Assembly (NCBI GenBank): GCA_963422735.1
Contig: OY730476.1
Coordinates: 3,936,001 to 4,000,000, forward strand
Direction of reading: 5' to 3'
DNA from: Candidatus Latescibacterota bacterium
GTDB lineage: Bacteria > Latescibacterota > UBA2968 > UBA8231
DNA: 64,000 nt
In this document: in pieces, positions 8,830 to 25,763 of the stretch
How positions within the stretch are numbered: position 1 is the first letter of the stretch
How the letters are laid out: every line of letters starts with the position of its first letter
The notes under the pieces: model-generated
Databases searched by the model: none
What the model was told of the DNA's origin: nothing
What the model saw: only the letters and a program-made list of their open reading frames with translations
Program-made: the position numbers and the translations under genes

Positions 8830-10236
8830 TCAGCTAGGGGACCGCTGGGCGGCTTGTTCGATCAAAAGCCGATTCTGCTGGCTTTGCCGTACCTGCGCCT
8901 CTAAAGCGACCGGGTCCCACTCGGACAATAGCCGCTCTTGGAGGTCGGCTAAGGTGGCCGCGTAGGCTGGAAGGCCCGCTAGGTCGTCGAATTCGTTGGG
9001 GTCGGCCTCTACGTCGTATAGCTGGGGTGGATCCCCCAAGCTGTAGTGGAGCTTGTAGCGGCCGCGTCGCAACATGGCCGTTGGCCGCGCCACGCCGTGG
9101 GCTAGGTATTCGGAAAAGGCTTCGTCTTTCCAGTCTGCGCCTTGCCCTTGCAGCAATCCCAATAGACTATCGCCGTTCAGCGGTCCCGAGCTGGGTGCGC
9201 CGGCCACATCGACGATGGTCGCCACCATATCCACCAGCGACACTACTTCGCCGATGTGCCGACCGGCCGGGATCTGCCCGGGATAGACCATTTGCAGCGG
9301 CACCTTGGCGGACGCCTCGTACAGGCTCGACTTCCGCCACATACCGTGCTCGCCGTTCATTTCTCCGTGATCGCTGAAGTGCACGATGAGCGTGTTGTCG
9401 CGCTGCCCGGTTTCCTCTAGGGCAGCAAGCAGGCGGCCGATCTTTTCGTCTAGATAGGTAATCAGCCCGTAGTAGCCAGCGCGTGCGCGGCGCACTTGTT
9501 CTTCGGGGAAATCGCCCGCCCCGAACATCGCCCGCATCCGCTGGTGTACGGGGTGTTGGCTTTCGAGATGGCCGGGGGGAATCTCCGGCATGTCGATTTG
9601 CTCGAGGGGATAGAGATTGAAAAACCGCTCGGGCACCACGAGCGGAAAATGCGGCGCAATAAACGAGACATTCAGTGCCCAAGGCCGCTGCTTGCGGCCC
9701 GGGTCGCGCAGATAGGCCAGCGCTTGTTTCTCCACCAGATCATCGACTTCGATCTCTTGGGTCGTCCCCGGCCCGGCCTCGGCGACCCCACCCCAAGGTG
9801 CTTTGGCCGGTGGTGTGCCCTTGCTCCAGTCGGGTGTACCGCGTGGGACGCCATCTTTGGTCCACAGCTCGGCGTGCAAATCGCGCGCTAGCTGGGCGCG
9901 GAAGCCGTGCAATTGGTCCGGGCCGCAAAAGTGCTGTTTGCCCGAGAGCACCACATCGTAGCCAACGGCGCGCAGCCGATGGGCCCAAGTGACCGCATCC
10001 GACGGCAGGGGGCTGGCATTGTCAAAGGACCCGATCTGGCTGATGTAGCGGCCGGTCATAAATGACATCCGCGACGGTAGGCAGAGCGGAGAGTTGCAAT
10101 AGGCGTTGTCAAAGGTCGCGCCCTCGGCGGCCAATTGATCCATAAAGGGTGTCTGCACGAGCGGATGCCGGTAGGGGCCGCTGTACATGGGCGCGTGTTC
10201 GTCCGTCATAATGAGCAGTATGTTGGGGCGATTCAC
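8830..10236 (-). CDS. Sulfatase (choline-sulfatase-like)
   Basis: 'RPNILLIMTDEH', CxPxR 'CLPSRMSFMTG', 'GKQH', 'SDHGE'. Confidence 0.92.
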   Translation of the reverse strand: MNRPNILLIMTDEHAPMYSGPYRHPLVQTPFMDQLAAEGATFDNAYCNSPLCLPSRMSFMTGRYISQIGSFDNASPLPSDAVTWAHRLRAVGYDVVLSGKQHFCGPDQLHGFRAQLARDLHAELWTKDGVPRGTPDWSKGTPPAKAPWGGVAEAGPGTTQEIEVDDLVEKQALAYLRDPGRKQRPWALNVSFIAPHFPLVVPERFFNLYPLEQIDMPEIPPGHLESQHPVHQRMRAMFGAGDFPEEQVRRARAGYYGLITYLDEKIGRLLAALEETGQRDNTLIVHFSDHGEMNGEHGMWRKSSLYEASAKVPLQMVYPGQIPAGRHIGEVVSLVDMVATIVDVAGAPSSGPLNGDSLLGLLQGQGADWKDEAFSEYLAHGVARPTAMLRRGRYKLHYSLGDPPQLYDVEADPNEFDDLAGLPAYAATLADLQERLLSEWDPVALEAQVRQSQQNRLLIEQAAQRSPS

Positions 10237-10871: not shown

Positions 10872-12164
10872 ATGGCCACAGACCTGTGCCAACACATCGC
10901 CGATACGCTGCTAATCGACACGCACGAGCACCTGCGCCCCGAGCGCGACTGGATCGAGAACGGCCCGGACATCCTGCAAGACCTTTTTGGCAACTACGTG
11001 CCCGCCGACCTGATCGCCGCCGGTGCTACTCGCGAGGACTTGCACAAGCTCAACGACGCTTCCGACCCGGACTTTGGTGCGCGCTTTGACCGCATCCGCT
11101 CGGCCTTTGCGGCCATCCGCTTCACCGGCTACGGCGAGGCCGTGCGCATCCTCGCGCACGAAGTTTACGGCATGGCCGATTTTAGCGGAGACGAGCTGCA
11201 CAAGGCGCAAGAGAAACTCACTGCTTGGCGCCGGCCCGGCGGGCGGCACGAGTTGCTCAGCCAAGTAGGTCGGCTCGATCACGTGCAGACCGACGACTTT
11301 TCTTGGCCCTGCCCGCCCGACGAGTCCGGTGTGGACTTTTTCCTCTACGACTTGTCGTGGGCCACCTTTTGCAACGGCCAAATCGACGCCGAGGCCATTG
11401 AGCGAGAAACCGGCGTGGCCGTCACCGACCTAGCTAGCCTCAAGCAGGGCATGGAAGCCCTCTTCGCCCAGCACGGCCCCCACGCTATAGCGGTCAAAGC
11501 CCAGCACGCGTACAACCGCACGCTGCGCTGGGAAGAGCGCGCCGACGCCGACGCCGAGCGCGTGCTCCAACGCTTGCTGCAGGGCGCGGAACTCGACGAG
11601 CCGAGCCGGTTGCTTTTGGGCGACTGGTGCTGGGCACGGGGCACAGAGCTGGCGATCGAATACGAGCTGCCGTTCAAGATCCATACCGGCTACTACGCTG
11701 GCAACGACCGCATGCCCGTTGACCGCATCAAAAGCGGCCACCTCTGCCCCTTGCTGGCCCGCTACCTCGATTGCCGCTTTGTGCTGATGCACATTGCCTA
11801 TCCTTATTCCAACGAATTGGTCGCGCTGGCCAAACACTACCGCAACGCGTACGCCGACCTGTGCTGGGCGTGGTCCATTGACCCGTACAGCGCGTGCGAC
11901 TTTGTGCGCCGCTTTATCCGCGCCGCGCCCGCGTCCAAGCTATTCGCCTTTGGCGGCGACACCGGCTGGCCGACCAGCTCGGTAGCCTACGCGATTCAGG
12001 CGCGTCGCTGGCTCGCCCGCGCACTGCAAGGCGAGATAGACGACGGCTTATTGACCGAGGCCGAAGCCATAGAGCTAGCGACGCGCTTTATGCGCGGCAA
12101 CCAAGAGGCCTGTTTCGACTTGACTGGGACGCGGCAGGTGCTGCGGGTTTCAGCGGCTAGCTAG
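10872..12164 (+). CDS. Amidohydrolase-family metallohydrolase
   Basis: 'IDTHEH', 'KIHTG', 'LMH', 'FGGD'. Confidence 0.85.
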   Translation: MATDLCQHIADTLLIDTHEHLRPERDWIENGPDILQDLFGNYVPADLIAAGATREDLHKLNDASDPDFGARFDRIRSAFAAIRFTGYGEAVRILAHEVYGMADFSGDELHKAQEKLTAWRRPGGRHELLSQVGRLDHVQTDDFSWPCPPDESGVDFFLYDLSWATFCNGQIDAEAIERETGVAVTDLASLKQGMEALFAQHGPHAIAVKAQHAYNRTLRWEERADADAERVLQRLLQGAELDEPSRLLLGDWCWARGTELAIEYELPFKIHTGYYAGNDRMPVDRIKSGHLCPLLARYLDCRFVLMHIAYPYSNELVALAKHYRNAYADLCWAWSIDPYSACDFVRRFIRAAPASKLFAFGGDTGWPTSSVAYAIQARRWLARALQGEIDDGLLTEAEAIELATRFMRGNQEACFDLTGTRQVLRVSAAS

Positions 12165-12302
12165 GTTGCATTAGGGCAGGAACGCCAACAGACGCTCGCG
12201 GTGTGCCCGGACTTTCTACCTTTATTCACCACAAGCCCGCTACCGAGTCGCGGTGAAGCGTTCGGGTCGTGACGTTTGCATAGGTGCGGCCCAAATCGGC
12301 AT

Positions 12303-12443
12303 CTAGCGTGGAAATATCGGCGAAACGTCCAAAAAGGTTGTCTTGCCAGACGCATTCGGCCCAACGAGGACGTGAAAAGGGCGCAGCGGCCTATGTACAT
12401 ACCGCAAACAGCGATAATTCAAGGCTTCAACTCGCGTTATCAT
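12303..12443 (-). pseudogene. N-terminal fragment of an AAA_15/AAA_21-type ATPase
   Basis: Hand translation MITRVEALNYRCLRYVHRPLRPFHVLVGPNASGKTTFLDV, then an early stop; Walker A present. Confidence 0.7.
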
Positions 12444-12604
12444 CAGTCGGCTCCATCTGCGTTGTCTGTCATAGGGCTATTCATAAACCAAATTTTACTT
12501 TGCGGAATTCTTCTAAGACTAGACGCGAGAAAACGCTCAGCAATTATAGCGCAGCATCGCTCTTTAGTCCGCATCTTCTCCGACGCCACAGTAAGCCACT
12601 CACC

Positions 12605-13339
12605 CTACTGAAACAACTGCGTCGTCGGCTTGATCACCAAGAGGGGTACGCAGGCGCGGGGCGGCAGCGAGGCGACGAAGAGCGCGGCTTGGGCTAGCTC
12701 TTCGGGTTGCAACATGGCGGCCCGGCGTTGGGCACTGACGGGTTCGGGCCGCTGGGCCAAAATCGGCGTCTCTACCTCGCCGGGACAAATCGCGCAGGCG
12801 CGGATGCCGGACGCGACTTCCTCCTCGTTGATCGAGTTGGTTAGAGCCACCGCCCCGTGCTTGGAGGCTGAGTACGCGGCACCGGCCAGCTTGCTGGCCC
12901 GCAGGCCGGCGATGGACGAAATCGTGATGATGAGACCGTCGTTTTTTTGCCGCATCCCAGGCAGCACCGCCCGCACCATGTTGTACACCCCGGTGAGATT
13001 GATGGCAATGGTCTGGTCCCAGTCCTCGGGTGCCACTGCGCCGACCGCACGCGGATTGGTGTTGATGCCGGCGTTGTTGACTAGTACATCGACAGCACCC
13101 CACTCGGCCTTGACAGCCGATGCTAGGGCTTCGACAGCGCGGCGGTCGGATACGTCGCAGGAGTAGAGCAAAATCCGATCGGCATCGAGGCCAGCGGCCG
13201 CGGCAGCGAGCGGCTCAGGACGTCGGCCAACAAACGCCACCCGCGCTCCTGCGTCAGCAAAATCGCGCGCTATGGCCGCGCCGATCCCAGTGCCCGCGCC
13301 GGTGACTACAACGACGTTATCGGCGAATTGCTGCATCAT
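12605..13339 (-). CDS. Short-chain dehydrogenase/reductase
   Basis: 'TGAGTGIG', 'NNAG', 'YSASK'; start overlaps the upstream stop. Confidence 0.92.
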
Positions 13340-14805
13340 TCCGCTCCCTTTTTGAGTGCTTGCAAGTGCTGGGCTTCCTCGCGCTGCTTGTAAAACGAGT
13401 CGAGGGGAAAGCAGCCGGAAATCATGCCGTTGCGTGGCGCGGTCGTGCAATCGGAAAACGTGCGGCAGATGAGGCGGCGTTGCAGTTGGCCGGTTTGCAA
13501 CACGTCGCAGGGCAGGTCGGGATAGGACAAAACCATCCGCCCCAAGCCGATAAAATCTACCATGCTCGCCCGCACGAGAGCTTGCCCCACGTGTGGCAGA
13601 TACTCCTGCAAGTAGGAATAACCCGACCCGACGAACAGACTGCGCGGGAAGCGCGCCTTGAGCCGGGCGACCACTTCTACTTGCCGCGCCACCCCGCACA
13701 GCGGGTCTTCCGGTGGCAGGTATCCATCGGAAGGGGGAAAGAGCGCTGGCCGCTGGATGTGCGGATTATAGTAAGGGCTGCCACAGGACAGGTTAAACAG
13801 CTCCACGCCCAAGCTTTCCAACGAGGCGATGAACTGCTCGGCCTCGCCTAAGTCAAGTTGCCGAGGATCGGCCTGATTGACCCCAAAGCCGTACTCGTAG
13901 GGCAGGCAGCTTTGGTGCGGCTCGGGCACCCCATGCCCGGGCTTGCCGTCGATACTCGCGTCTGGATCGGGCCGGAAGGGCACCAAGTCGAAGGCACTCA
14001 GCCGTACGCCGATGCCGAGGCCGGGTGCTCGGTTGCGGATCCCCTCGATGATGGAGCGGACAAAGCGCGTGCGATTTGTAAAAGAGCCGCCAAAAGGGCC
14101 GGGCCGCGTAAATGCGCTGAGGAATTCGTGCCCTAGGTAGCCGTGGCAATGCTTGATATCCACGAAGTGGTAGCCCAACTCATGGGCGATTTGTGCGCTA
14201 GTAACATAGCGGTCGATCAACTCCTCGATATAGGCGTCCGTCAAGAGCGGATGGTCCGCGGCAAGGCCGAATTTGCAATCCAAGATCGGGTGGTGATAGA
14301 GAATGGCTGGCGCGGCTCGATCCTTGCAATAGGGCCGGCAAAACCGCCCCGAATGCGTTAGTTGCAGCCCGAGGAGCAGGTCGTCGGTGGTGCCGAATCG
14401 CTCGCGGTGCGCCGACAGGAGGATGTCGCGCAGCTCGGCCATGCCGGCGCGGTTTTCTTGGCGCGCCATGAGCTGGTTCGGGTTGGCGCGGCCCTCGGGC
14501 ACCACGGCAAACGCCTCCCCGCCCCAGATGAGCTTGGCCCCGCTGCGCCCGAAATTCCGCCAGCGTCGGCGCGTCAAGTCGCTGGGCTGGCCGTCCTTAG
14601 TCCCATCCCACCCTTCCATCGGCTGAATGGCAAAGCGGTTGCCGATGCGGATGTCGCCGCTGCGGGCCGCTTGGGCCAGCGGGGATGTGGGGGCGGTTGC
14701 TATCTGGTCGTCGCAGGGCAATTCCGCACCTAAACGGGCCAGATGGGCGCGGAAATCCGCCGCCTGCTTAAAGCTAGAGATGCGCGGATAACGCACCTTG
14801 GCCAT
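13336..14805 (-). CDS. NADH:flavin oxidoreductase (Old Yellow Enzyme family)
   Basis: '[10 protein letters not shown]', 'QLTHSGR', '[13 protein letters not shown]', '[10 protein letters not shown]'. Confidence 0.88.
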
Positions 14806-15557
14806 TAAGGGGCCTCCCGGCGTTGCAGATACAGCATCAGCCCCAAGCCGAAGGCGATCATGGCGATGCTGAGGAGTTGGGCTTGGCTCAGGTCCCACAG
14901 CACACGCGGGTTGATTCGAATGAATTCCACCAAGAACCGCGCCAGCCCGGCGAGGATGAGATAGAGGCTGAACAACAGGCCCGAAGTTGCGACGTGGGTC
15001 CGTCTCCTCCACAGGAAGGCAGCGATCCCCAAGTGCGCGAGGGTTTCGTACACTGGCGCGGGATGGACCTTTTCAAGGGTCGGCACCACCCCGTTGGGAT
15101 AGGCCATGCCCCAGGGAAGATCCGTCGGCACCCCGTAGTCGCCATCGCCGGCGAGTTGGCAGCCGATTCGCCCGATCCCGTAGCCCACGGCAAGGGCAAT
15201 GCCCATCGAGTCGGCGACTTGGCCCAGCGGCGCACTGTGGCGGCGAATTTGCCAAAGTGCGCCAGCGGCGGCGACGACAAATCCCCCGTACCAAGTCAAG
15301 CCGTAGCCGGAAAACAGTAGGTCGAACACGTCGCCCCAAGTCTCAGGAGACGTTTCAAATATCACAAAGTAGAGCTTGGCACCGACTAGCCCGCCGATCA
15401 TACAGGTGGTGACAATCGTCGATCCCAGCTCTTCGTGTAGCCCTTGGCGCTTGAACTCGCGGTTGAGCACATGCAGGGCCGTTAGGAAACCGAGGGCGAC
15501 CATGAGGCCAAACGTGCCAATGTTAATGGGACCGATCTCGAATAGGTAGGGATACAT
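14805..15557 (-). CDS. lgt: Prolipoprotein diacylglyceryl transferase
   Basis: 'GLTWYGG', '[14 protein letters not shown]', 'HPAPVYE', 'RFLVEFIR'. Confidence 0.9.
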
Positions 15558-15559
15558 AA

Positions 15560-18500
15560 TCAGATATTTTTGCGGCCCAGAGCCTCGATCTGTCGCTTAA
15601 GTGCCGCGGCGATCTCGTAGTAAATCTCATAGGGGCTCAACGTCTCGGTGCATCCCTTAAAAGAGATAGTTTCCAAGGGAGGGCCAAAGAGCAGGCGCAA
15701 GGGGTGGCGCGCTGGTTTGCGCGTCCCCTTGGGCAAGGCTTCGCGGGTGCCGGCAATGTGCAGGGGCACTACGGGCGCGTCCAGCTCGTAGGCCAAAAGC
15801 CCCACGCCCGCCTTAAACGACTGTAGCTGGCTGCTGACCGAGCACGTGCCTTCGGGAAAGACCAGCAGCGGGCGGCGTACCCCCACCGATTGCCGCGCCC
15901 GTACCAAGCCTGCGGCAAAGTCGCCGTGGCCGTTGAAAGGGACGGCGTTGACAAAGGTGTACAAAAACCAGCGCAGCTCGGAGTCGGCAAGGTAATGCTC
16001 GCTGGTTGCGATATTGAGGTGGTCCACGTGGGAGCGCACGGCCGCGTACACGCAAGCACCGTCGAGATGGCTGGCGTGGTTGGCGGCAATCAGGTATGGC
16101 CGATCTTGCGGCAAGTGCTCTAGGCCACCGGCCCGGAGGTCGAAAAAGCGGCGGAACAAAGGGCCGCCGGTCTCCCACAGGATTTCCTGCAGCATCTTTT
16201 TGCCGGCCTCGCTTTCTGGCTCGGCACTCGGCTCGGCGTACAAAATGCCCGACCAGTACGCGGGCGACCGCTCCACCTCCCAGTCCACCCCGTCGCGCAA
16301 GTGATCCTCTATCTGTGCCAAGACGCTGCGGAGCGTGCTCTGTGTACGCAAAAACCCATCGACTTGGGTCCCCAGCCGCTGGCCGAGCCACGCGGCGAAC
16401 TCCACCGCCATCAGCGAATCCAGCAAGGTATCGAGTGGCGCGTCTATATGAGCCGCTACTTCTCCGGTGCTCAGACCAGCGAGCAGGCCGATTTGGCGCT
16501 GGATCGCCCGCTCCCATTCCGGCAGGGCTGTGCCCGGGCAGTCTTCGCTCTCGATGGCGGACAACAGGGCTTGGCGGTCCACGGTGCCGTCGTCTAGCCT
16601 CGGCAGCGGTCGGGTCCAAAAGTGCAGGCACTGGATCCGGTGATGGCTGGGCAAGGTGCGCGAAATCTCGTAGGCCTCGCGCAGGGCCTCGGCTTCCTCG
16701 GCGTTGCGGTTGAGCACGGCCACGCCGCGCACTTCTTCATCCCCAGTGCGAGCCGAGGGCACGCCGACTACGCTCAGCTCGGCCACATGCGGCAAGCCGT
16801 AGTAGAGCGATTCAACTTCGCGTAGATAGGCGTTGTGGTCAGCCCCATTGACGAGCAGGTCTTTGCTCCGCCCTTCGACGAAGAGATATCCTTCGTCGTC
16901 GAGGCAACCAAGGTCGCCGGTATGTAACCACCCGTCGCGCAACACCGCTTGGGTTAGCTCCTCTTGGGAGAAGTATCCCTTCATGACGTTGGCACCTTGC
17001 ACCAAAACCTCGCCGACGCCGCGCTCGTCCGGCTCGGCGATCTGCACTTGCTGCCCAGGCAGCACCTGTCCCACCGACCGGGCTTTGTCCTGCTTGGGCG
17101 CGTTGACCGCCACGATTGAGGCCGCTTCGCTCAGTCCATATCCTTGACAAATCGTCACGCCGAGACGCTCATAAGCGCCGATGAGGTCGTCAGACAGAGC
17201 CGCGCCGATGCTGACGACCCGCCTCAGAGCGGCTAGCGCAGCCGTAGCTCTGGCCCCGAGGTGCTCGATGCGGTCGGCCAAGACGCGCAACAGGCGCGGC
17301 GCGGTCAACAGCACGGTCGTATCCGTATCGCGCAGGGCTCGGAGTATCTCGCGGCTGTTGACAGCCTCTAAATACGTGATGGTGGCCCCGCCGACCAGTG
17401 GCAGCAGCAAGCCGCCGGTGAATTCGAGAGCTTGGTGCAGAGGCAGAGTCGAGAGCATGCGGTCGGATTCGTAGATGCGCAGCACCTCGCCTTGGGCGAG
17501 GACGTTGGAAATGAGATTGCGATGACTCAACACCACTCCGCGCGACTCGATGACCGAGGTAAAGATGATCGACGCCGTGGCGTCTGGCTCGACTCGCGGC
17601 GGCTTCCAAGGGCCTTCTCCGACGGACGCGGCTGACTCGGGAGCGCACCCGAACGGCAGACCGTCGCGATCTAAATTAAAAAAGGCCATCTCCTTGTGGG
17701 CTGCCACGCCCTCGGGTGAGAGCTGGGAAAAGCACTTTTCCGCTGCAATCAACGCCTTCGCTTGGACAAAGTCACACAGCCTCCAGATGTCTTCCTCGTG
17801 CGTCTGCGGGTCGATGGGCACGACTGCTAGCCCGTGCAGGCTGGCCGCCATGTAGGCGACGACCCACTCCGGCCCGTTGTCCCCGCATAGCAGGACCCGT
17901 GTACCAGCCGACATGCCCTGTGCTTGCCAACTGCGTGCCACGCGCTCGGCGCGGGTGATCAACTCACCGTAGCTGATCCGCGTCCAGCCGGCTCGGCGCT
18001 CGATTTGCAAGGCCGTTCTGGCGGCGTAGCGGCCGCAGGCCCAGCGCAACAGGTCCGGGATAGTGCGGATGCTTTCCTCGATGCGCCAGCGCTGCTCTTC
18101 GCCCCCCACTTCGCCCGGTGCCGCGCTCAACGGCTCTTGGTCGTCGGCCCCGCCTAGCTCGTGGCTCCGGAGGCCGGGTAGGTGGGTCTTTTGATAATAT
18201 TGATACCAGTCGATCCGCCGTACGTCCATGTTGAATATCCGCTGCTCTTCGGGGGGCAGCGACTCGTAAAGGGCCAACATGCGCTTGGTTTCATAACGGC
18301 AATCGAGGGTCGTGTACGGGCTGAACAGGTCGGTGAAGTACTGGACGCGCTTGAGCCGCGTCTTGAGCGCGGCCAAGCGGCGCTTCTTCTGGGCCGGTGC
18401 CCAACGCTCGGGCAGGTATTCGTAGAGCTTTTGCTTTATCTCTAGAGGATAGAGGTACTTCCAGTTGAAGACGCGCTGGAAGCGGGCTACCGTCGGGAAG

Positions 18501-19768
18501 GTCCAATCCACTAGCTCGGGCCGCGAGCCGTCCTTGTTGAGGAGGGGGTGCTCCTCAAAATAGCCTTTGACGTACTTGAACATCCGGGTGTTGGGTAGCG
18601 GGTTTTCTTCGCTGGTCGCCGCGTGGAAGACTTCCACGGTGGAGGCCGTGGCCTGCGCGGCTGCGGTCAGCACGGTATTGACGACGATGTCCACAGGTAC
18701 CAAGTCCATGGGTGCGCCGATTGCGGCTGGGAAGTCCGGGACGATCCCCCGCCCGTAGGCCACCACTAGCGGATCGGTCACTTTAAGCCCGTGTATCCAG
18801 CCTGGATGCGGGTCTTCGAGCGCACCTTCGGTGACGCTGGGCCGCACGATGGCCAGCGGCACTTGGCCGCGGTGCTTGACGAGTAGTTGTTCGCCCATGG
18901 CCTTGGTAAAAGTGTACACGTCATTCCAGCCATGCTGCCGCGCTCGGCGCATCCCTTCCTCGACCAGCTTGCGCTCGATCCAGCGGCGACAGCGGTCGTC
19001 AATCAGCTTTTGCAAGCGGCTGTCCGAGAGTGTGCGGCGGTGGCTCTGCTCGACGATCTCGCGGCGGAATGCTTGCTGTTGCTCGGTGCTTTGCGCTTGG
19101 GCACGGATTGTTTGGCAGAGGGCTTGCGCTTGGGCGATCTCTTCTTCGGGGACGAAAGGTTGTGGAGGCGTGCTGCCGTCGATTAGGTGCTGAATGGTGC
19201 GATCGACCGGCAGTACTCGCTCGGGGACGGCACCGGTGAGGCGCCCGTTGACGTACGCGGTTGATACGTGTACTAAGATGGGCTTTTTGCGGCCTTCGCG
19301 GGCCAGCCGCAAAAGCTCCTGAGGTGCCAAGGTGTTGAATTGGATCGCCGAGTCGAGCGGTTCGTCGAAGGTGACGCTGGCCGCGTTGCCGATGATGAGG
19401 TCAACTTCCGCAAGCAGCTCGTCGCGCGACACTTCGTCTAGCCCGAGGCCCGGCTGTCGCATGTCGCAGGCGAGGGCGCGCACCTTCTGTCGCGCCGCGG
19501 CAAAGGCGGCTGGTTCCTCTTGGCGGAAGCGGTCGAAGACGACCCGCTTGAAAAGCTCGTCCAGCCGCTCCTCTACCGGCAGTGCGGCCCCACCAGGACC
19601 CCGACCGGGCCGCAACACGAGGTACAAGCGCCGCACGCCGGGCAAATAGCGCAGGATCTTGGCCGTCAGCCCCTGCCCGTAAAACCCGGTGCCGCCGGTC
19701 AGCAATACGGTGCGGTCCTGATAGAATTCTCTAATCATAGCGGAATGCCCTGCCACAAGGAGGCTCAC
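15560..19768 (-). CDS. ElbD-like multidomain enzyme: fatty acyl reductase + AMP-binding + ACP + acyltransferase (start GTG 19768 or ATG 19738)
   Basis: FAR 'TGGTGFYG','HVSTAYV','YTFTK','RPS'; A-domain 'GYGLSEA','WLHTGDLG'; ACP 'LDSLM'; PlsC 'NHASHLD','FPEGT'. Confidence 0.88.
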   Translation of the reverse strand: MSLLVAGHSAMIREFYQDRTVLLTGGTGFYGQGLTAKILRYLPGVRRLYLVLRPGRGPGGAALPVEERLDELFKRVVFDRFRQEEPAAFAAARQKVRALACDMRQPGLGLDEVSRDELLAEVDLIIGNAASVTFDEPLDSAIQFNTLAPQELLRLAREGRKKPILVHVSTAYVNGRLTGAVPERVLPVDRTIQHLIDGSTPPQPFVPEEEIAQAQALCQTIRAQAQSTEQQQAFRREIVEQSHRRTLSDSRLQKLIDDRCRRWIERKLVEEGMRRARQHGWNDVYTFTKAMGEQLLVKHRGQVPLAIVRPSVTEGALEDPHPGWIHGLKVTDPLVVAYGRGIVPDFPAAIGAPMDLVPVDIVVNTVLTAAAQATASTVEVFHAATSEENPLPNTRMFKYVKGYFEEHPLLNKDGSRPELVDWTFPTVARFQRVFNWKYLYPLEIKQKLYEYLPERWAPAQKKRRLAALKTRLKRVQYFTDLFSPYTTLDCRYETKRMLALYESLPPEEQRIFNMDVRRIDWYQYYQKTHLPGLRSHELGGADDQEPLSAAPGEVGGEEQRWRIEESIRTIPDLLRWACGRYAARTALQIERRAGWTRISYGELITRAERVARSWQAQGMSAGTRVLLCGDNGPEWVVAYMAASLHGLAVVPIDPQTHEEDIWRLCDFVQAKALIAAEKCFSQLSPEGVAAHKEMAFFNLDRDGLPFGCAPESAASVGEGPWKPPRVEPDATASIIFTSVIESRGVVLSHRNLISNVLAQGEVLRIYESDRMLSTLPLHQALEFTGGLLLPLVGGATITYLEAVNSREILRALRDTDTTVLLTAPRLLRVLADRIEHLGARATAALAALRRVVSIGAALSDDLIGAYERLGVTICQGYGLSEAASIVAVNAPKQDKARSVGQVLPGQQVQIAEPDERGVGEVLVQGANVMKGYFSQEELTQAVLRDGWLHTGDLGCLDDEGYLFVEGRSKDLLVNGADHNAYLREVESLYYGLPHVAELSVVGVPSARTGDEEVRGVAVLNRNAEEAEALREAYEISRTLPSHHRIQCLHFWTRPLPRLDDGTVDRQALLSAIESEDCPGTALPEWERAIQRQIGLLAGLSTGEVAAHIDAPLDTLLDSLMAVEFAAWLGQRLGTQVDGFLRTQSTLRSVLAQIEDHLRDGVDWEVERSPAYWSGILYAEPSAEPESEAGKKMLQEILWETGGPLFRRFFDLRAGGLEHLPQDRPYLIAANHASHLDGACVYAAVRSHVDHLNIATSEHYLADSELRWFLYTFVNAVPFNGHGDFAAGLVRARQSVGVRRPLLVFPEGTCSVSSQLQSFKAGVGLLAYELDAPVVPLHIAGTREALPKGTRKPARHPLRLLFGPPLETISFKGCTETLSPYEIYYEIAAALKRQIEALGRKNI

Positions 19769-19911
19769 TGCGCGGGACGCTTAGGATCGCGACCCTTGCC
19801 GCCGCACCGATTCCGGTCTAGCCCTTGCTTTGTGATATAGGGGTGTTCGACCTGTTTTTCCAGTTCGCGGCGCTTGTCGGCCCACTCGATGTCCCGTTTT
19901 CGCTTGGCCAT
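19765..19911 (-). CDS. Putative 48-aa basic protein
   Basis: MAKRKRDIEWADKRRELEKQVEHPYITKQGLDRNRCGGKGRDPKRPAQ; its TGA overlaps the GTG of the next gene. Confidence 0.5.
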   Translation of the reverse strand: MAKRKRDIEWADKRRELEKQVEHPYITKQGLDRNRCGGKGRDPKRPAQ

Positions 19912-19977
19912 GTTTTGATGTTATCTTTGTATCAAGGTTAATCTACGCGCAAGGCCGCTCATAAGACAACCCAAGCT

Positions 19978-20883
19978 ATGTCCAAACACTGGGTCTTGAT
20001 AGCCAATCCAACGGCGGGCAGTACCCGCGCCCGCAGCTTCGCCGAGCAGGCCGCCCTGGCCCTGCAAGCTGCCGGCCAAGCGGTCGAATTGCACTACACG
20101 CGGGCCAAGGGCCACGCAGCCGAGCTGGCGCAGCAGGCCGTGGCCGAGGGTGCTGAGCGGCTCGTGGTCTGCGGCGGCGACGGCACGATCAGCGAGACGC
20201 TCGCACCCCTCGCTGGCTCGCACGCGGCCTTGGGGCTGCTACCCTGCGGCACGTGCAACGACTTGGCCCGCGCCCTCGCCGTGCCGCTCCGGGTGGAAGC
20301 GGCCATAGGCAACCTGCTCCACGGCAGGGTGCGCGCCATAGACTTGGGGCGGGCCGACGACCGCTTCTTCGCCACAATCGCCGCCTTTGGCTTTGACGCC
20401 GAAGTCAACCGTCGCATGGAAAGCGTCCAAGGGCCTCTGTCCGGGCGGGTCCGCTATATCCTGGAAGCATTGCGGCACGTCGCTTGCTATCAGCCGGCTC
20501 GGGTTCGCCTCTGCGGCGATTTCGGGGAGATTGAGCAAGAGGTGCTGCAAGTATCTACCGCCAATGCGCGGAACTATGGGGGCAATTTGTGCGTTGCCCC
20601 AGATGCCGACCTCGGCGATGGCCTCTTCGACGTGGTCGTCGTCGATGCGGTGCCGCGGCGGGCGATCCTGTCGCTGATGCTCCGCCTTTTTTGGCAAGGA
20701 CACATCCGCCATCCAGCCGTGCGCTTGATGCGCACGGCCCGCCTAGTGCTGCACACCGATGCGCCGCACAGCGTATATGCAGACGGCGACTACTTGGGCC
20801 AGACGCCACTCGTGCTGGAAATTAGCCCGGCCGCTCTGCAGGTGGTGGTGCCGAGTTCTTGCTCGCAGGGGGTGCGTTGCTGA
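19978..20883 (+). CDS. Diacylglycerol/lipid kinase (YegS/BmrU family)
   Basis: 'IANPTAG', 'GGDGT', 'LPCGTCNDLAR', 'NARNYGG', 'ADGD'. Confidence 0.92.
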   Translation: MSKHWVLIANPTAGSTRARSFAEQAALALQAAGQAVELHYTRAKGHAAELAQQAVAEGAERLVVCGGDGTISETLAPLAGSHAALGLLPCGTCNDLARALAVPLRVEAAIGNLLHGRVRAIDLGRADDRFFATIAAFGFDAEVNRRMESVQGPLSGRVRYILEALRHVACYQPARVRLCGDFGEIEQEVLQVSTANARNYGGNLCVAPDADLGDGLFDVVVVDAVPRRAILSLMLRLFWQGHIRHPAVRLMRTARLVLHTDAPHSVYADGDYLGQTPLVLEISPAALQVVVPSSCSQGVRC

Positions 20884-20884
20884 T

Positions 20885-20978
20885 GTTAGTGGCCAGTGGC
20901 CAGTGGCCAGTGACCAGTGGTCAGTGGTCCGTCCTCGCACGGCACCCTAGGGGAGAGGGACAGGCCACTAACCACAGG
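20885..20978. repeat. Inverted heptamer-repeat hairpin, copy 2
   Basis: (AGTGGCC)x3 AGTGACC (AGTGGTC)x2 ... CACCCTAGGGG ... GGCCACT AACCACA. Confidence 0.75.
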
Positions 20979-21310
20979 CGTCTTTGTGAACTACCTGCCC
21001 TGCGAGTGAGGATGACATGCTTGAGACACCCTTCGGGAGTAGGTCGATGCAAGCGAATAGAAACTTGGCCAACATGCTGCACATACAGGCACTTGTCTTG
21101 CAGCTTGCACCCGTCGCCATGTCGGTATTCGAGAGACCGAAAGCGATTGGCCCCCTTGAATCGCGGGAAGCCCGGGGTGTCTCCGGCTCTCAGACGACGA
21201 AAAAAGGCTCGGAATGCCTTATCCAAGCGACGGAGTATTTGCTGCATACTAGTTGCATTGAGCAGGCCAAAATCCTCAAGATGCAGACGATATTGGCGAG
21301 TGCGCTGCAT
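20979..21310 (-). mobile_element. tnpB: IS200/IS605 TnpB remnant (internally deleted, RuvC domain missing)
   Basis: 'MQRTRQYRLH' joined directly to 'LNATSMQQILRRLDKAFRAFFRR...PGFPRFKG'. Confidence 0.8.
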
Positions 21311-21444
21311 GTCTTACACGCCCTTTTGTTCAGTAATATACCGCTCAATCGTTTTTGTCTATACACGACCTATACTAGCGACAAAATAACTGCGGGACCA
21401 CGAGGTAGAAAGACGGTCAAGACGGCAGTGCCCCGCTGAGTACT

Positions 21445-22422
21445 ATGGCTACCCGAGCACAGCAAATACGCCTGGGCATCTTCTTCTTGGTTTCTCTCGC
21501 CGTTCTCGCGCTCTTCTTCATCGTCGTCGCTGGCAGCCATATCCTGCGCCAGCGCGATACCTATTACATCGAGTCCAACTCGCCCGTCAGCGGCCTCAAC
21601 AAAGGCGCGGACGTCAAGTACTTGGGCTTTAGCATTGGCCGAGTCGAGGGCATCGCAATCGCACAGGATCATCTCTCTACGGTAGTAGTCGAGATTTCGG
21701 TTGAGAGGCGGCTGGCCGAAAACGCCATCCGCACCGACGCGCAAGCGCGAATGGCCTCGCTGGGGATCACCGGCCTGAAGTTCATTGAGCTTTTTGGGGG
21801 CAGCGACGACGCCCCGCCCCTCCCTCCGGGGTCCACAATTGTCGCGGACGAGACCTTTTTTAGCAGCATGCAAGAGCGCGCCGAAGTGCTCAGTGCCAAG
21901 GTTGAACAGACCATCGACAACCTAAACGCGCTGCTCAGCAGCGAAAACCAGCGCGTCTTCACCGAGTTGCTGAGCAACGCGGGCAACCTGCTGGCGACGG
22001 CCAACGCGCTGGTTGAGGACAACCGCTCTGCATTCGACGAGGCGGCGGCCAATATGGTCGCCACCAGTCGCTCGCTCGCCAAAACCAGCGCGACGTTGGC
22101 GGCGACGGCCGATTCCCTGCACATCTTGCTCGTGGGCGAGAAGCTGCAACAGACGGTTGACGATCTGCAAGTGACGATGCACAAGTTGCGCCAGCAAATG
22201 GACGGTCCGGTTCCCCTGCTCGTCGCACGGATGGACACCGTGATAAGCCATATCGACCAGACCTTTGTGGGCATCGACCAGACCGTAGGGGCTAGCCGAC
22301 AGAATCTCTTGCGCGCCATGCAGGAACTGGAGGAAACTTTGCAGAATATCCGCGAAACCACCGAACTAATCCGCGAGAACCCCGCGGTGCTCATCCGAGG
22401 TCGCAGTGGTGCGACCCAATAA
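21445..22422 (+). CDS. mlaD: MCE/MlaD-family protein with long helical C-terminus
   Basis: N-terminal TM, 'VSGLNKGADVKYLGFSIGRV', 'GITGLKFIEL'. Confidence 0.9.
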   Translation: MATRAQQIRLGIFFLVSLAVLALFFIVVAGSHILRQRDTYYIESNSPVSGLNKGADVKYLGFSIGRVEGIAIAQDHLSTVVVEISVERRLAENAIRTDAQARMASLGITGLKFIELFGGSDDAPPLPPGSTIVADETFFSSMQERAEVLSAKVEQTIDNLNALLSSENQRVFTELLSNAGNLLATANALVEDNRSAFDEAAANMVATSRSLAKTSATLAATADSLHILLVGEKLQQTVDDLQVTMHKLRQQMDGPVPLLVARMDTVISHIDQTFVGIDQTVGASRQNLLRAMQELEETLQNIRETTELIRENPAVLIRGRSGATQ

Positions 22423-23164
22423 CCGAGTGCGCCGCTGCGGTCAGGTCCTCGTCTTGGTCATAGCGCTAGCCGGCTGCGCCCAGTTGCTAGGCGGCGAAAC
22501 CAAGCTGCCGCAACGGCGCTATTTCAAGTTGCCTATCGAACCCTTGCGCGGTAGTGTGGAAGATTCCGAGCGCCCGTACCCTTTCCAAGTGCAGGTCAAG
22601 GGCTTTGAGGTGCCCCGAGCGTATGACCGCACCCACATCATCCGCCGCCGCGACCAGTACGAGCTGCAGCGCGACAACCTCCACCACTGGATGGAGCGGC
22701 CCGGCGACATGATCACCGACGCGGTCAAGCAGTACTTGCGCCAAGCCGACCTCTTTACCTATATCGGCGGGGATCGCGATTTTTTCGAGCACCGTCCGGA
22801 TTACGTGTTCAGCGGCTCGATCAAAGCCATTGAGCGCTTCGACAGCGGCGATCTGTGGGCGGCCCATCTCGTTATGACGATGAAACTAGTGAGGCAAGCC
22901 GATGGCAAGGTTATATGGCAGGACGATTTCGACGAGGAGAAACAGGTTTTCTCCCCGGCCGTGAAATACACGGTGGCCGCGTTGAGCGGGATTTTGGGCC
23001 AGCGGATGAAAAAGGCGATCGGAGAGATCGACTTCAAGTTCAGCAACAAGCAGCGGCCCGCGCCCATCGCGTCCGACGCGGAAGCTGCACCAGCGGCCCG
23101 AGATACAGTGCTGCAGACCGAAGCCGATCACTACGAGCTCATACCGGGGAAGCTGGTCCCCTAG
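22406..23164 (+). CDS. PqiC-like ABC auxiliary lipoprotein
   Basis: Lipobox 'LAGC'; 'HWMERPGDMI', 'GSIKAIER'; follows mlaD. Confidence 0.75.
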   Translation: MVRPNNRVRRCGQVLVLVIALAGCAQLLGGETKLPQRRYFKLPIEPLRGSVEDSERPYPFQVQVKGFEVPRAYDRTHIIRRRDQYELQRDNLHHWMERPGDMITDAVKQYLRQADLFTYIGGDRDFFEHRPDYVFSGSIKAIERFDSGDLWAAHLVMTMKLVRQADGKVIWQDDFDEEKQVFSPAVKYTVAALSGILGQRMKKAIGEIDFKFSNKQRPAPIASDAEAAPAARDTVLQTEADHYELIPGKLVP

Positions 23165-23172
23165 GACTTGGC

Positions 23173-24675
23173 ATGTACAAGCTGCTCTATATCCTGATCG
23201 CCCTACCGTTGCTCGCCGGCCCCGCTGCGGGCAACAGCTATACTTGGGTCGCCCCACCTGGGCGCGGCCAACTCGAACAGGATCCAACCCTGATTCCCAA
23301 GGGCAAGGGCTTTCTCTTCGTGCCGACGATGACCGGCTCCCTCAACGAGCCCAGTTTCCTCGTCTTACAGGGCAACAGACCTATCCGCGAAGCCTCCCCC
23401 GGCACCGGCGTGTTGCTCTCGCCCGGCAACTACAAATTGCTGGTCGGCTCGGGCGCGGACATCCAGATGATGAGCCGCACCGTGCCAATCCAAGAGGGCA
23501 TGACGACCTTGATAAAGCCCTTCTGGGCCGGACTAGTCATCAACGTCATATCCGAGAACCGCGCATCGATCAACGAATCCTATGAACTGTACCGGGAGTC
23601 CTCTCAGGAAAACTACGGCCTCGGCTTCGGCCTCGAGGAGGAGCGAGGCGAGGCGGTCAAAACTTGGCTTCTGCCCCCAGGCGTTTACTCGGTAGTGCAA
23701 GTCGGCGACAATGTATCAACCACCCGCAAGTTCAGCGTCCGTTTAGAGCCGGGCGAGTTGGTCCAGCGCAATCTAGTAGTGGACACCAGCGACGATACCT
23801 TCATCGGCTTCTACCCCCCGACTCAACAGGGTTTTCTCACCCAAGTAGCTGACTCGCGCTGGAAGACCTCCTTGCAGCTAAGCGGCTCACCCCGGCTGTC
23901 CACCTCGCAGAATACCACCGGCGCAGATCGCTCGGTCCTCTTGCTCTCCGCTGAGGTCATCGGCAGCAGCGTCTATAACACGGACCGCCACTACGCCAAT
24001 CTGCGGTTGGACTTTGAAGAGGGCTTCACCCGCGAGGAGGGCGACGACTTCCGCAAGTTCATCGACAAGTTCGAGGTCCGCGCTACGTATATCTATCGGC
24101 TTTCCAAGCGGATCGGCCCCTATTTGCGCGGGGTGTTCAACACCAAGCTATTCGCCACTGAGGACCGCTTCGACCAGCCGCGCAATCTTCTGATCCGCGA
24201 TGGCGAGATCGAGGGCATGATGGGCATTAGCGAATTTATCCTCTCTCCGCCCTTCAGCCCCCTTGAACTGCGCCAAGGCATTGGCATCAACTCCCAGGTC
24301 ATCAGCAGCTTTCCCCTGAACCTCGACATGCGCGTTGGTTTTGGGGCACGTCAAAGCTATGTTACCGATACCTATGACCTAAACTCCTCCCGCACCATCG
24401 CCGACAAGTTGCAGGACAAGACCGCCACCGGCTTGGAGGCCGTGCTGCTCCTCCGGTCGCGTTTCTCGCGCTTCCCCAGCTTGGATTCGGAGTTTGACAT
24501 CCTAATCCCGGAGACGGCCACCGACACTTGGGAGTTCACTTGGGAAAACCGCTTGCGCTTGCCGCTTAGTCGCTTCATCAACATGGTCGTCGTCTTCGAT
24601 TTCGAGCGCAAGCTGCCGGTCCAGCGGCTGCAATCTATGCAACAGGTCCTGCTGCGCCTCAACTATTTGCTATGA
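23173..24675 (+). CDS. Exported protein, probable C-terminal outer-membrane beta-barrel
   Basis: Signal peptide 'MYKLLYILIALPLLAGPAAG'; amphipathic strands; ends 'LLRLNYLL'; ATGA overlap with mlaE. Confidence 0.6.
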   Translation: MYKLLYILIALPLLAGPAAGNSYTWVAPPGRGQLEQDPTLIPKGKGFLFVPTMTGSLNEPSFLVLQGNRPIREASPGTGVLLSPGNYKLLVGSGADIQMMSRTVPIQEGMTTLIKPFWAGLVINVISENRASINESYELYRESSQENYGLGFGLEEERGEAVKTWLLPPGVYSVVQVGDNVSTTRKFSVRLEPGELVQRNLVVDTSDDTFIGFYPPTQQGFLTQVADSRWKTSLQLSGSPRLSTSQNTTGADRSVLLLSAEVIGSSVYNTDRHYANLRLDFEEGFTREEGDDFRKFIDKFEVRATYIYRLSKRIGPYLRGVFNTKLFATEDRFDQPRNLLIRDGEIEGMMGISEFILSPPFSPLELRQGIGINSQVISSFPLNLDMRVGFGARQSYVTDTYDLNSSRTIADKLQDKTATGLEAVLLLRSRFSRFPSLDSEFDILIPETATDTWEFTWENRLRLPLSRFINMVVVFDFERKLPVQRLQSMQQVLLRLNYLL

Positions 24676-25763
24676 CGTGGGTGCAGAGCGACGGCTTGGG
24701 GATCGCGCTCGGTGGCGCGCTTTCGCTACGCACCATCGGTGCCCTCGCTCCCCAGGCCCGCGCACTCATCGCCGAGCATCCGCGTTCCGCGCTCCGCGCC
24801 GACTTGCGCCAAGTCGAACACCTCGACATCGCAGGGGCCGTTTTCCTGCGCGGATTATCCGACCTCGCCCTCTCCTTGGACAAGGAACTCCGCCTCGCCG
24901 AGCTGCCGGCCCATTTGCAGCCTGTCTTCGACTTTGCCACGCCCGCGCCGCCCGCGCCGCCCGCGCTGCGCCTCGCCGCCCTTGAACGCCTCGGCGCTTG
25001 GGTGCGTGCTCAAGGCGTCTGCGCTGCCGATTTTCTCTATCTGATGGCCGACCTGAGCGTTTTCTCGGTCCTATCCCTATTCCGCCGCGATCAGATTCGC
25101 CGGGGCAGTTTTGGCGAGCAAGCGTACGCGATTGGTGCGCAGGCCCTGCAGATCGTCGGGTTGATTCTCTTTCTCGTCGGCGCGGTTTCGGCTCTCCAGT
25201 CGGCAGCTCAACTCCGCCAGTTCGGGGCCGATATTTTCGTCGCCAACCTGCTGGGGATTGGCCTGACCCGCGAGTTGGGGCCGCTGATGACCGCGATCAT
25301 GGTATCTGGCCGCTCTGGGTCGGCCATTGCCGCCGAGATCGCCACCATGAAGTTCACCGAGGAGTTGGACGCCCTGCAGACTATGGGAATCGACCCGCTG
25401 CGCTTTGTGGTCGTGCCCAAGCTGTGGGCCATGATCGTCTGCATGCCGCTTTTGACGATCATGGCCAACTTCGTTGGCATCCTCGGAGGCACCTTCATCG
25501 GCTTGGTGTCGCTGGACATCCCGGCTACTGTGTTTCTCAACCAGGTCTTCTCGTCGCTCTTTCTCAAGGACTTGCTCACCGGGCTGGTCAAAAGCGCGTC
25601 CTTTGCGTGGCTTATCGCGATCATCTCGGTTCATCACGGCCTCAATTTCAGCGGCGGAGCCGAGGGTGTCGGCCGGGCGACGACCTCGGCGGTCGTGTCT
25701 TCGCTGTTTGGCATCATTGTCCTCGACGCCTTCTGGGGTATTGTCTTCTACCTCAAATGGTGA
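24672..25763 (+). CDS. mlaE: MlaE permease with N-terminal STAS domain
   Basis: 'VEHLDIAG' STAS; 'RELGPLMTAIMVSGRSGSAIAAEIATMK'. Confidence 0.92.
   Translation: MTWVQSDGLGIALGGALSLRTIGALAPQARALIAEHPRSALRADLRQVEHLDIAGAVFLRGLSDLALSLDKELRLAELPAHLQPVFDFATPAPPAPPALRLAALERLGAWVRAQGVCAADFLYLMADLSVFSVLSLFRRDQIRRGSFGEQAYAIGAQALQIVGLILFLVGAVSALQSAAQLRQFGADIFVANLLGIGLTRELGPLMTAIMVSGRSGSAIAAEIATMKFTEELDALQTMGIDPLRFVVVPKLWAMIVCMPLLTIMANFVGILGGTFIGLVSLDIPATVFLNQVFSSLFLKDLLTGLVKSASFAWLIAIISVHHGLNFSGGAEGVGRATTSAVVSSLFGIIVLDAFWGIVFYLKW

Follow-up and report, generated by a model that had tools for sequence, protein, structure and literature searches.

Does a bacterium that encodes a lipid-making megaenzyme directly beside its prolipoprotein diacylglyceryl transferase (lgt) join ether-lipid synthesis to the lipidation of its lipoproteins? 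The question is raised by a locus in a 64,000-nucleotide stretch of Candidatus Latescibacterota bacterium (assembly GCA_963422735.1, contig OY730476.1, positions 3,936,001 to 4,000,000 of the forward strand; this whole stretch is called the window below). In it, the gene of an ElbD-type enzyme is followed by lgt, by the gene of a flavin mononucleotide (FMN) oxidoreductase resembling Old Yellow Enzyme (OYE) and by that of a short-chain dehydrogenase/reductase (SDR), and a lipid kinase gene diverges from them on the other side. The window has a GC content of about 0.61, and the genome consists of one contig (4,953,052 bp, scored as 95% complete). On the sequence comparisons described here, the locus would, with somewhat better than even confidence, be a lineage-specific version of the elb-type ether-lipid operon, in which the linkage with lgt and the OYE gene reflects co-expression rather than a shared reaction.

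The domains and conserved residues of the large protein carry its assignment. Pfam matches were obtained with NAD_binding_4 (195.6 bits, residues 23–365), Sterile (48.3 bits, 468–536), AMP-binding (211.8 bits, 575–933) and Acyltransferase (61.2 bits, 1214–1338); NAD_binding_4 and Sterile together would form a fatty acyl reductase (FAR), and the acyltransferase is predicted to be of the PlsC type. A carrier domain lies between AMP-binding and Acyltransferase, and its isolated segment scored 20.5 bits with PP-binding, just short of the cut-off of 20.8. Across 16 aligned proteins, residues T24, G25, F29, Y285, K289, F1304–G1307 and, in the carrier domain, D1117 and S1118 are invariant in all 16, H1231 and D1236 of the acyltransferase are kept in at least 90%, and the catalytic motifs of reductase, carrier and acyltransferase are intact in the ElbD-type protein. 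We take these positions to be the Rossmann glycine motif, the Y-x3-K motif of the reductase, the phosphopantetheine serine, and the H-x4-D and FPEG motifs of the acyltransferase. Homologues with the identical Pfam set of four domains were found. The description of a four-domain protein of about 1400 residues in the first-pass annotation (prepared from the letters of the window alone) is therefore upheld by the open reading frame (ORF) of 1402 codons, by Pfam and by the conserved residues. The ElbD proteins of the nearest metagenome-assembled genomes (MAGs) of Candidatus Latescibacterota are 86–91% identical, and some proteins with 89% identity are labelled Gemmatimonadetes by other sources. 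When the ElbD alignment was used for a profile scan of genome contigs, 75 loci were obtained, mostly of generic AMP-binding ligases and only 15 of ElbD or FAR-AT type. The nearest myxobacterial sequence found is encoded in a Myxococcales MAG (locus L071; 29% identity over residues 19–1398).

Genes that could supply the remainder of an ether-lipid pathway lie elsewhere in the genome. For this and the following comparisons, a collection of 168 genomes of the phylum was used, 132 of them belonging to the class and 76 to the family of the window's genome (f1, 18 genera); f2, f3 and f4 denote sister families, g numbers genera, and G and L numbers genomes and loci. Genes for an alkyl-dihydroxyacetone phosphate synthase (AGPS) and an SDR lie at 4.786–4.789 Mb, 0.83 Mb from the window locus. 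The AGPS matches the mammalian enzyme (4BBY) with an E value of 5e-145 over residues 39–603 of 615, and 2UUU with 1.3e-84; an AGPS was found in 124 of the 132 class genomes, among them those of the genera in which ElbD is replaced by a reductase-only protein (see below), and in 71 of 75 f1 genomes. With a true AGPS gene at another site, formation of the ether bond needs neither lgt nor the OYE gene. Genus g19 stands apart in this respect: four of its genomes (G113, G114, G116 and G117) keep full-length ElbD-lgt-OYE and gave no AGPS match at E 1e-100, and the fifth carries a 46%-identical AGPS copy. The genus could offer a natural setting in which to see whether ElbD works independently of AGPS.

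The sister families arrange these genes differently. In f2 and f4, FAR is clustered with genes for a 645-aa protein, an AGPS-like flavoprotein and an SDR, and in f2 a kinase gene follows further on; in f3, the cluster contains a ligase, FAR, a 664-aa protein, a HAD protein, a zinc-dependent alcohol dehydrogenase (Zn-ADH), a protein with a LarA-N domain and a kinase. The genome of the window has orthologues of the f2/f4 cluster: AGPS (64% identity), SDR (56%) and a 646-aa protein encoded at 1.75 Mb (45–46%). The last is a candidate GNPAT-like acyltransferase, a lead that comes from a sub-threshold acyltransferase match in Pfam (E 0.0013); the Atlas lead (0.79) is too weak to count. Proteins of about 645 aa were also seen between FAR and AGPS (f2, f4) or between FAR and HAD (f3) at L109:7801-9738, L110:7175-9169, L111:11145-13085 and L140:6847-8787; no Pfam family is matched at the usual threshold, and PF01553 appears below it (E 0.0013). 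The usual partners of ElbD appear to be missing from the window's genome. No ElbB-type HAD is encoded in the operon, and none was matched in the genome by tblastn with two HAD queries; the LarA-N query from f3 gave no match in the genome, and one from Planctomycetota only 33% identity over 219 aa; matches to the Zn-ADH partner in the genome are at most 28% identical.

From these parts, whose presence and homology were established, a eukaryote-like route can be proposed as the simplest reading, in which all reactions are inferred. ElbD would adenylate a fatty acid, load it onto its own carrier domain and reduce it to the aldehyde or alcohol with its FAR part, as its domains and conserved motifs suggest, and its PlsC-type domain would acylate a glycerol-phosphate or dihydroxyacetone phosphate (DHAP) acceptor. 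The alcohol would feed the eukaryote-like AGPS, the acyl-DHAP being supplied by an acyltransferase, for which the GNPAT-like 646-aa protein is a candidate. AGPS would then exchange the acyl for the alkyl group, the adjacent SDR, a candidate alkyl-DHAP reductase, would reduce the ketone, and the divergent YegS-type kinase of the window could phosphorylate (alkyl)acylglycerol back into phospholipid synthesis. The FAR domain of ElbD is the only Sterile/FAR domain in the genome.

How widely the arrangement is kept was determined by locating the ElbD or FAR gene, the Pfam LGT match and the OYE gene across f1 and comparing their coordinates by hand. All three lie next to one another in the same orientation in 66 of the 75 other f1 genomes (18 genera), on one contig in 64 and split by a contig break inside lgt in G088 and G127. 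Six genomes were not judged owing to contig ends or missing matches (G007, G017, G019, G089, G105 and G126). In G084 (genus g8) the OYE gene directly follows FAR and lgt lies on another contig, and G118 and G119 (genus g20) keep ElbD without the window-type lgt and OYE and carry another type of lgt; because of these exceptions, lgt need not be encoded at the ElbD/FAR locus. The identity of ElbD drops to 44% within f1, and in 17 f1 genomes (genera g8, g9, g14, g15, g16 and g17, and G015 of g1) the gene beside lgt encodes a reductase-only protein of about 540–600 aa, so that the invariant core is FAR-lgt-OYE and not the whole of ElbD.

The flanks of this core are more variable. In eight 20-kb loci from eight f1 genera other than g1, the kinase gene is present in four and the SDR gene in one (g16), MlaD adjoins the FAR/ElbD gene on the far side in all eight, and an amidohydrolase gene is found 3–4 kb off in six. 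Outside f1, FAR-lgt adjacency was found in none of the 34 genomes in which both genes could be placed (25 of f2, 3 of f3, 4 of f4 and 2 of other classes), and relatives of the window lgt or OYE were found at none of 15 ElbD- or FAR-AT-type loci of other phyla (Acidobacteriota, Poribacteria, Planctomycetota/Phycisphaerae, Armatimonadota, Dehalococcoidia and Myxococcales; flanks up to 10 kb). The linkage is confined to one family. Conservation of the whole order, which the first-pass annotation had put forward as a check, thus holds in f1 for ElbD/FAR, lgt and OYE and fails outside it; for the SDR gene it fails within f1 as well, since this gene adjoins OYE in two of the nine genera with enough flank (g1 and g16). 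As part of the joint best explanation, and with the same modest preference, we propose that lgt and the OYE gene came to lie behind FAR/ElbD in the ancestor of f1 and have been kept there since.

The lgt product itself has the features of an ordinary enzyme. Pfam LGT is matched over its full profile (1–240 of 240) with 164.6 bits against a cut-off of 24.9, and E. coli Lgt (5AZB, E 3.9e-12) is the sole match in the PDB; the E. coli protein (5AZB/5AZC) comprises 291–300 aa and the window's 250 aa, Pfam LGT being full length in both. The equivalents of R143 and R239 are kept, as is E243 (HMMER alignment to 5AZB and alignment of 29 sequences); according to PMC8048626, R143 and R239 are essential in E. 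coli Lgt. The genome contains one LGT match (the window lgt), one LspA and two LNT_N matches, and in a rough scan lipobox-like N-termini were found on 219 of 6533 long ORFs compared with 25 of 2123 in a reversed-sequence control. Since the genome has LspA, Lnt, an excess of lipoboxes and a sole LGT, it needs an Lgt, and the window lgt is it. The first-pass annotation had named a sole housekeeping lgt among the findings that would speak against its proposal of coupled pathways, and this is what was observed: no second LGT match is present in the genome, and the window lgt is the orthologue of the sole lgt of f2.

The history of the gene agrees with this. The identity of window-type Lgt proteins falls with distance, from 58–92% in f1 to 45–53% in f2 and part of f4 and 34–47% in other classes. 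When 29 Lgt sequences were placed in a maximum-likelihood tree, the 11 operon-linked proteins of f1 grouped in a single clade (support 99/100), with the sole Lgt of f2 as its sister (100/98), and the stems of the f1 and f2 clades are similar in length (0.53 and 0.66). The f2 gene sits between genes for a Dam-type methylase and cysteinyl-tRNA synthetase (CysRS), unlinked to FAR. Such a pattern is that of a housekeeping gene inherited vertically and moved a single time, and the window lgt appears to encode an ordinary prolipoprotein diacylglyceryl transferase, the only one of the organism. In twelve f1 genomes, an extra lgt with a better score (about 215–230 bits) is present elsewhere. Four of these copies, from three genera, were aligned (L125/G009, L126/G108, L127/G095 and L135/G093) and showed branch lengths of 0.006–0.035, whereas the operon lgt copies of the same genera differ by 30–40%, which suggests a recent horizontal spread of the extra copies.

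A further element of the locus is a small ORF of 48 codons directly upstream of ElbD, which encodes a basic peptide whose HPYITxQ core is invariant. The TGA stop codon of this small ORF overlaps a possible GTG start codon of ElbD at 19768 and precedes the ATG at 19738 by 27 nt. The ORF is full-length with 75–90% amino-acid identity in 21 loci of the genus besides that of the window; summed over 15 of these, substitutions are distributed over the three codon positions as 82:44:121. Eight more f1 loci, from 8 genera, have the HPYITxQ core in the corresponding position, and in genus g15 a weak trace was seen, a diverged small ORF in another reading frame. The motif occurs once in the six frames of the 4.95-Mb genome, was not found in the f2–f4 loci or the other-phyla loci examined, and the peptide matches no Pfam family. 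The small ORF is a candidate for an unannotated component or regulator of the operon.

Several observations weigh against a locus that is simply an elb-type operon with co-expressed passengers. The ElbD-type assignment follows from domain order, and the link to the myxobacterial enzyme is only an indirect one, through the Myxococcales MAG locus. The core of small ORF, FAR, lgt and OYE is intact despite the loss of ligase, carrier and acyltransferase in the 17 reductase-only genomes, and it persists while the kinase is absent from four and the SDR from seven of the eight loci described above; pure hitch-hiking predicts a looser linkage. The small ORF, which is specific to the family, arose at the node at which lgt and OYE were recruited, and this is the strongest reason to see more than chance in the operon. 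The lgt product stays below the NCBIfam equivalog cut-offs (TIGR00544, 97.7 vs 118.9; NF000778, 131.9 vs 334), and relative to E. coli Lgt it has Tyr for H103 of the HGGL motif, Phe for Y26 and Cys at the position that we presume to be N146.

These points bear on the alternative that comes closest to the first-pass annotation, namely that the operon couples ether-lipid synthesis to lipidation and that Lgt prefers the 1-O-alkyl-2-acyl-glyceryl group of ether phosphatidylglycerol (PG), which would give ether-anchored lipoproteins. It is favoured by the tight FAR-lgt linkage over 18 genera, even where only FAR is left, by the stop/start coupling at the junctions and by the substitutions of the Lgt lineage at the three positions just named. 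A precedent exists in archaeal lipoproteins anchored by ether lipids, going by the abstracts of PMC12462473 and PMC13631571. Nevertheless, the same Lgt lineage, with the exchange of H103 for Tyr, is sole and unlinked in f2, which has FAR and AGPS, so that the linkage is not needed for the role of Lgt; the stems show no asymmetry; g8 and g20 have replaced the linked lgt with other types; and lgt is found at none of the 15 ElbD loci of other phyla. His is retained at H103 in the f1 genera g13, g21 and g22, and Cys at N146 recurs in another Lgt lineage in f3, and the three changes are probably lineage traits and not marks of an operon-tied function. We therefore consider coupling unlikely. Less likely again is the specific form in which the small ORF, FAR/ElbD, Lgt and OYE would make up one module producing S-(1-O-alkyl-2-acyl-glyceryl)cysteine anchors or routing FAR-derived alkyl chains via Lgt; if true, it would be the first bacterial counterpart of the archaeal ether-lipid anchors. 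Overall, a dedicated link from ether lipids to lipoproteins is improbable without being far-fetched, and the sole lgt embedded in the operon offers a concrete way to ask whether bacterial lipoproteins carry ether anchors. Under the preferred reading of a lineage-specific elb-type operon, the linkage would most likely serve the co-expression of envelope-lipid and lipoprotein functions.

Whether the genes form an operon at all was judged from their junctions, read directly from the sequence, and the features concerned are collated in Table 1. The stop codon of ElbD and the start codon of lgt are separated by 2 nt (TGA-tt-ATG), lgt and OYE overlap by 1 nt (TAATG), and OYE and SDR overlap by 4 or 1 nt (ATGATG over TGA), exactly the packing of the four genes that had been recorded in the first-pass annotation. 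The 2-nt gap and the overlapping stop and start codons argue for one transcript, and the ElbD, lgt and OYE genes are probably co-transcribed and translationally coupled.

Table 1. Features of the locus and its surroundings (coordinates are those of the window).
Feature	Coordinates	Strand	Remarks
ElbD-type enzyme	15560-19768	(-)	1402 aa from GTG 19768; the database copy starts at ATG 19738 (1392 aa)
lgt	14805-15557	(-)	250 aa; Pfam LGT
OYE-like FMN oxidoreductase	13336-14805	(-)	489 aa; in-frame ATG inside a longer 558-aa ORF
Classical SDR	12605-13336/13339	(-)	243/244 aa; adh_short
YegS/DgkB-type lipid kinase	19978-20883	(+), divergent	301 aa; DAGK_cat and YegS_C
Small ORF	19768-19911	(-)	48 aa; directly upstream of ElbD
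Mla-type lipid-transport genes	21445-26503	(+)	3' of the kinase; MlaD, ABC auxiliary lipoprotein, 606-aa protein, STAS-MlaE, ABC ATPase (Pfam)
Sulfatase gene	8830-10236	(-)	Downstream of the operon
Amidohydro_2 gene	10872-12164	(+)	Downstream of the operon

Contigs from RNA libraries were found over the locus. Those of two metatranscriptome runs from one study (90–95% identical, and so derived from a relative) and of one run guessed to be RNA (at least 99% identical) together span the five genes; single contigs bridge lgt/OYE (14669–14983) and OYE/SDR (13144–13404), and one extends from ElbD over the small ORF to 19933. Among the pieces listed from four runs, none bridges the ElbD/lgt junction. 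As evidence of expression or of one transcript these contigs are a weak hint, since contigs cannot prove a single transcript and carry-over of DNA is possible. Scans of positions 12000–21500 gave 0 promoter-like sites against a mean of 2.0 in shuffled sequence, and 9 terminator-like sites against 7.7, with no excess. Such scans, which do not rise above shuffles, would suit an inherited gene order with no shared transcript, in which closeness says nothing about function, as would the wider synteny with MlaD (8 of 8) and the amidohydrolase (6 of 8) in the f1 loci outside g1. This explanation is nonetheless quite improbable: it has to contend with the 2-nt gap and the overlapping stop and start codons, with a core that outlived the turnover of genes on both sides and, less weightily given possible DNA carry-over, with the contigs over lgt/OYE and OYE/SDR.

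The ligase-carrier-acyltransferase part of ElbD invites a comparison with E. coli Aas, which repairs the lyso-phosphatidylethanolamine derived from the Lnt step. Were ElbD to re-acylate lysophospholipids in the same manner, its place beside lgt would be explained, and its best NCBIfam matches do include the Aas models PRK08633 (196 bits) and PRK06814 (175.5 bits). These scores lie far under the equivalog cut-offs (1221 and 1349), and the conserved partner of lgt is FAR, the Aas-like part being missing from the 17 f1 genomes that keep FAR-lgt-OYE; we regard an Aas-like role as very improbable. The least credible proposal is that Lgt itself forms the ether bond by transferring diacylglyceryl from PG to a FAR-made alcohol rather than to the thiol of a cysteine, which would yield alkyl-diacylglycerols, with OYE and SDR supplying or trimming the alcohol: the invariant FAR-lgt adjacency, the absence of ElbB, Zn-ADH and LarA-like partners from the genome and the retention of the operon in g19, where four of five genomes lack an AGPS match at E 1e-100, would fit it, but AGPS in 71 of the 75 f1 genomes accounts for ether bonds, the protein is an orthologue of the ordinary Lgt of the phylum, and we know of no precedent for Lgt as an ether-bond former.

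The OYE-like gene does not appear to be an ether-lipid gene by association. Its product matches Oxidored_FMN partially (profile 9–231 of 342; 64.7 bits against a cut-off of 27), PDB ene-reductases are matched over residues 49–275 only, approximately (best E 2.9e-15), and no NCBIfam model scores above its cut-off. In the partial match to chromate reductase 5NUX, H-G-Y is kept, with the first His off by one position. The gene is single-copy in 126 of the 132 class genomes (60–93% identity) and is better conserved than FAR. Orthologues scoring about 686–689 bits occur in two ElbD-bearing Acidobacteriota genomes, and none was found at E 1e-30 in three other ElbD-bearing genomes (Poribacteria, Planctomycetota and Phycisphaerae). 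The gene neighbours mreB-mreC in f2 and f4, and AP_endonuc_2 and GFO/IDH/MocA oxidoreductases in f3 and Acidobacteriota; in the Atlas, it scores 0.98 with clusters of about 485 aa that come from Acidobacteriota, Bacteroidota and Planctomycetota. On this distribution, the protein would belong to a widespread, long OYE subfamily, a class-wide flavoenzyme of housekeeping type, that was recruited beside FAR only in f1. The idea of an AGPS substitute or vinyl-ether reductase was dropped, given the true AGPS of the genome and the conservation of OYE in settings unrelated to lipids. The subfamily has an invariant Cys-rich C-terminal stretch with three cysteines (C-x5-C-x11-C), which to us recalls the Fe-S site after the barrel of FadH-type enzymes, one cysteine short.

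The product of the SDR gene, a variable member of the operon, matches adh_short with 190.3 bits, and its NCBIfam matches are FabG-like and remain under their cut-offs. The divergent kinase postulated by the first-pass annotation could be confirmed as a gene for a soluble lipid (diacylglycerol) kinase of the YegS/DgkB type: its product matches DAGK_cat (109.4 bits), YegS_C (119.5 bits) and TIGR00147 (169.9 bits against a cut-off of 118.65), and it is the sole DAGK_cat gene of the genome. The family matches of the five proteins of the locus are far stronger than chance would give. The kinase gene is also a recurrent partner across lineages; no other neighbour of ElbD/FAR clusters is as widely conserved (7 of the 15 other-phyla loci as well as f2 and f3).

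The relationship to known systems was assessed from the literature. ElbD of M. xanthus is said to have been described by Lorenzen et al. in 2014. As described in PMC9131029 and PMC13012113, the M. xanthus ether-lipid operon elbABCDE encodes an epimerase, a HAD protein, ElbC, ElbD and a second epimerase. The window's enzyme shares with this ElbD, by description, the order of FAR, acyl-CoA synthetase/ligase, acyl carrier protein (ACP) and AGPAT-like acyltransferase and a length of about 1400 aa, and both genomes have a separate AGPS locus. The neighbours differ: M. xanthus has two NAD-epimerases (elbA and elbE), the HAD gene elbB and elbC, according to the same descriptions, whereas the window has the small ORF, lgt, the OYE-like gene, a classical SDR and the divergent kinase. 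PMC13012113 also describes a eukaryote-like route of FAR, GNPAT, AGPS and alkyl-DHAP reductase in M. xanthus (MXAN_1676-1674). This route forms one cluster in f2 and f4 and is dispersed in f1, FAR being fused into ElbD beside lgt and OYE.

Elb-like clusters of Acidobacteriota, Poribacteria, Planctomycetota, Armatimonadota and Dehalococcoidia, together with diacylglycerol (DAG) kinase genes beside elbD and standalone elbD in Latescibacterota, are reported in the main text of a preprint (bioRxiv 10.64898/2026.06.23.733905), and ElbD homologues in 50 and AGPS in 67 of 92 Latescibacterota MAGs in that of PMC11868695. The first-pass annotation knew of no description of the arrangement; for the kinase beside elbD and for ElbD and AGPS in the phylum, such descriptions are thus already in print, at least in these main texts, while for the arrangement with lgt no paper was found. 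Specifically, no description of lgt with ElbD was found, the supplements and figures of the preprint and of PMC11868695 lying outside the search; "lipoprotein" and "flavin" are absent from the main texts of both, and "lgt" and "diacylglyceryl" from that of the preprint. In full-text searches, Lgt was not found joined with plasmalogen among the papers listed, nor "fatty acyl-CoA reductase" with "prolipoprotein diacylglyceryl transferase", and for Lgt together with ether lipids only the archaeal lipoprotein papers were found. The lgt/OYE arrangement is real, family-wide and, as far as these searches reach, undescribed, and we regard it as a new version of a cluster that is already known.

The helper genes of ElbD-type enzymes vary by phylum, and the f1 version bears on the question of how these enzymes produce alkyl ethers: the HAD, Zn-ADH and LarA-like helpers are stripped away, AGPS is present in the genome and the only FAR lies in ElbD, which speaks for an ElbD able to serve simply as the supplier of alcohol and acyl groups to an AGPS route. 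The elb-like clusters of other phyla encode ElbD homologues with 32–36% identity to the window's and a YegS-type kinase in 7 of 15 loci (L032–L047). Among the 12 with Pfam data, a HAD gene lies directly downstream of ElbD in 9, Zn-ADH is present in 7 and LarA-N (Lar_N) in 3; none of these is found in the window operon. The order ElbD-HAD-Zn-ADH-LarA-N-kinase was seen recurrently at L034, L035, L036, L039, L042, L045 and L110, which belong to Acidobacteriota, Armatimonadota, Planctomycetota, Dehalococcoidia and f3.

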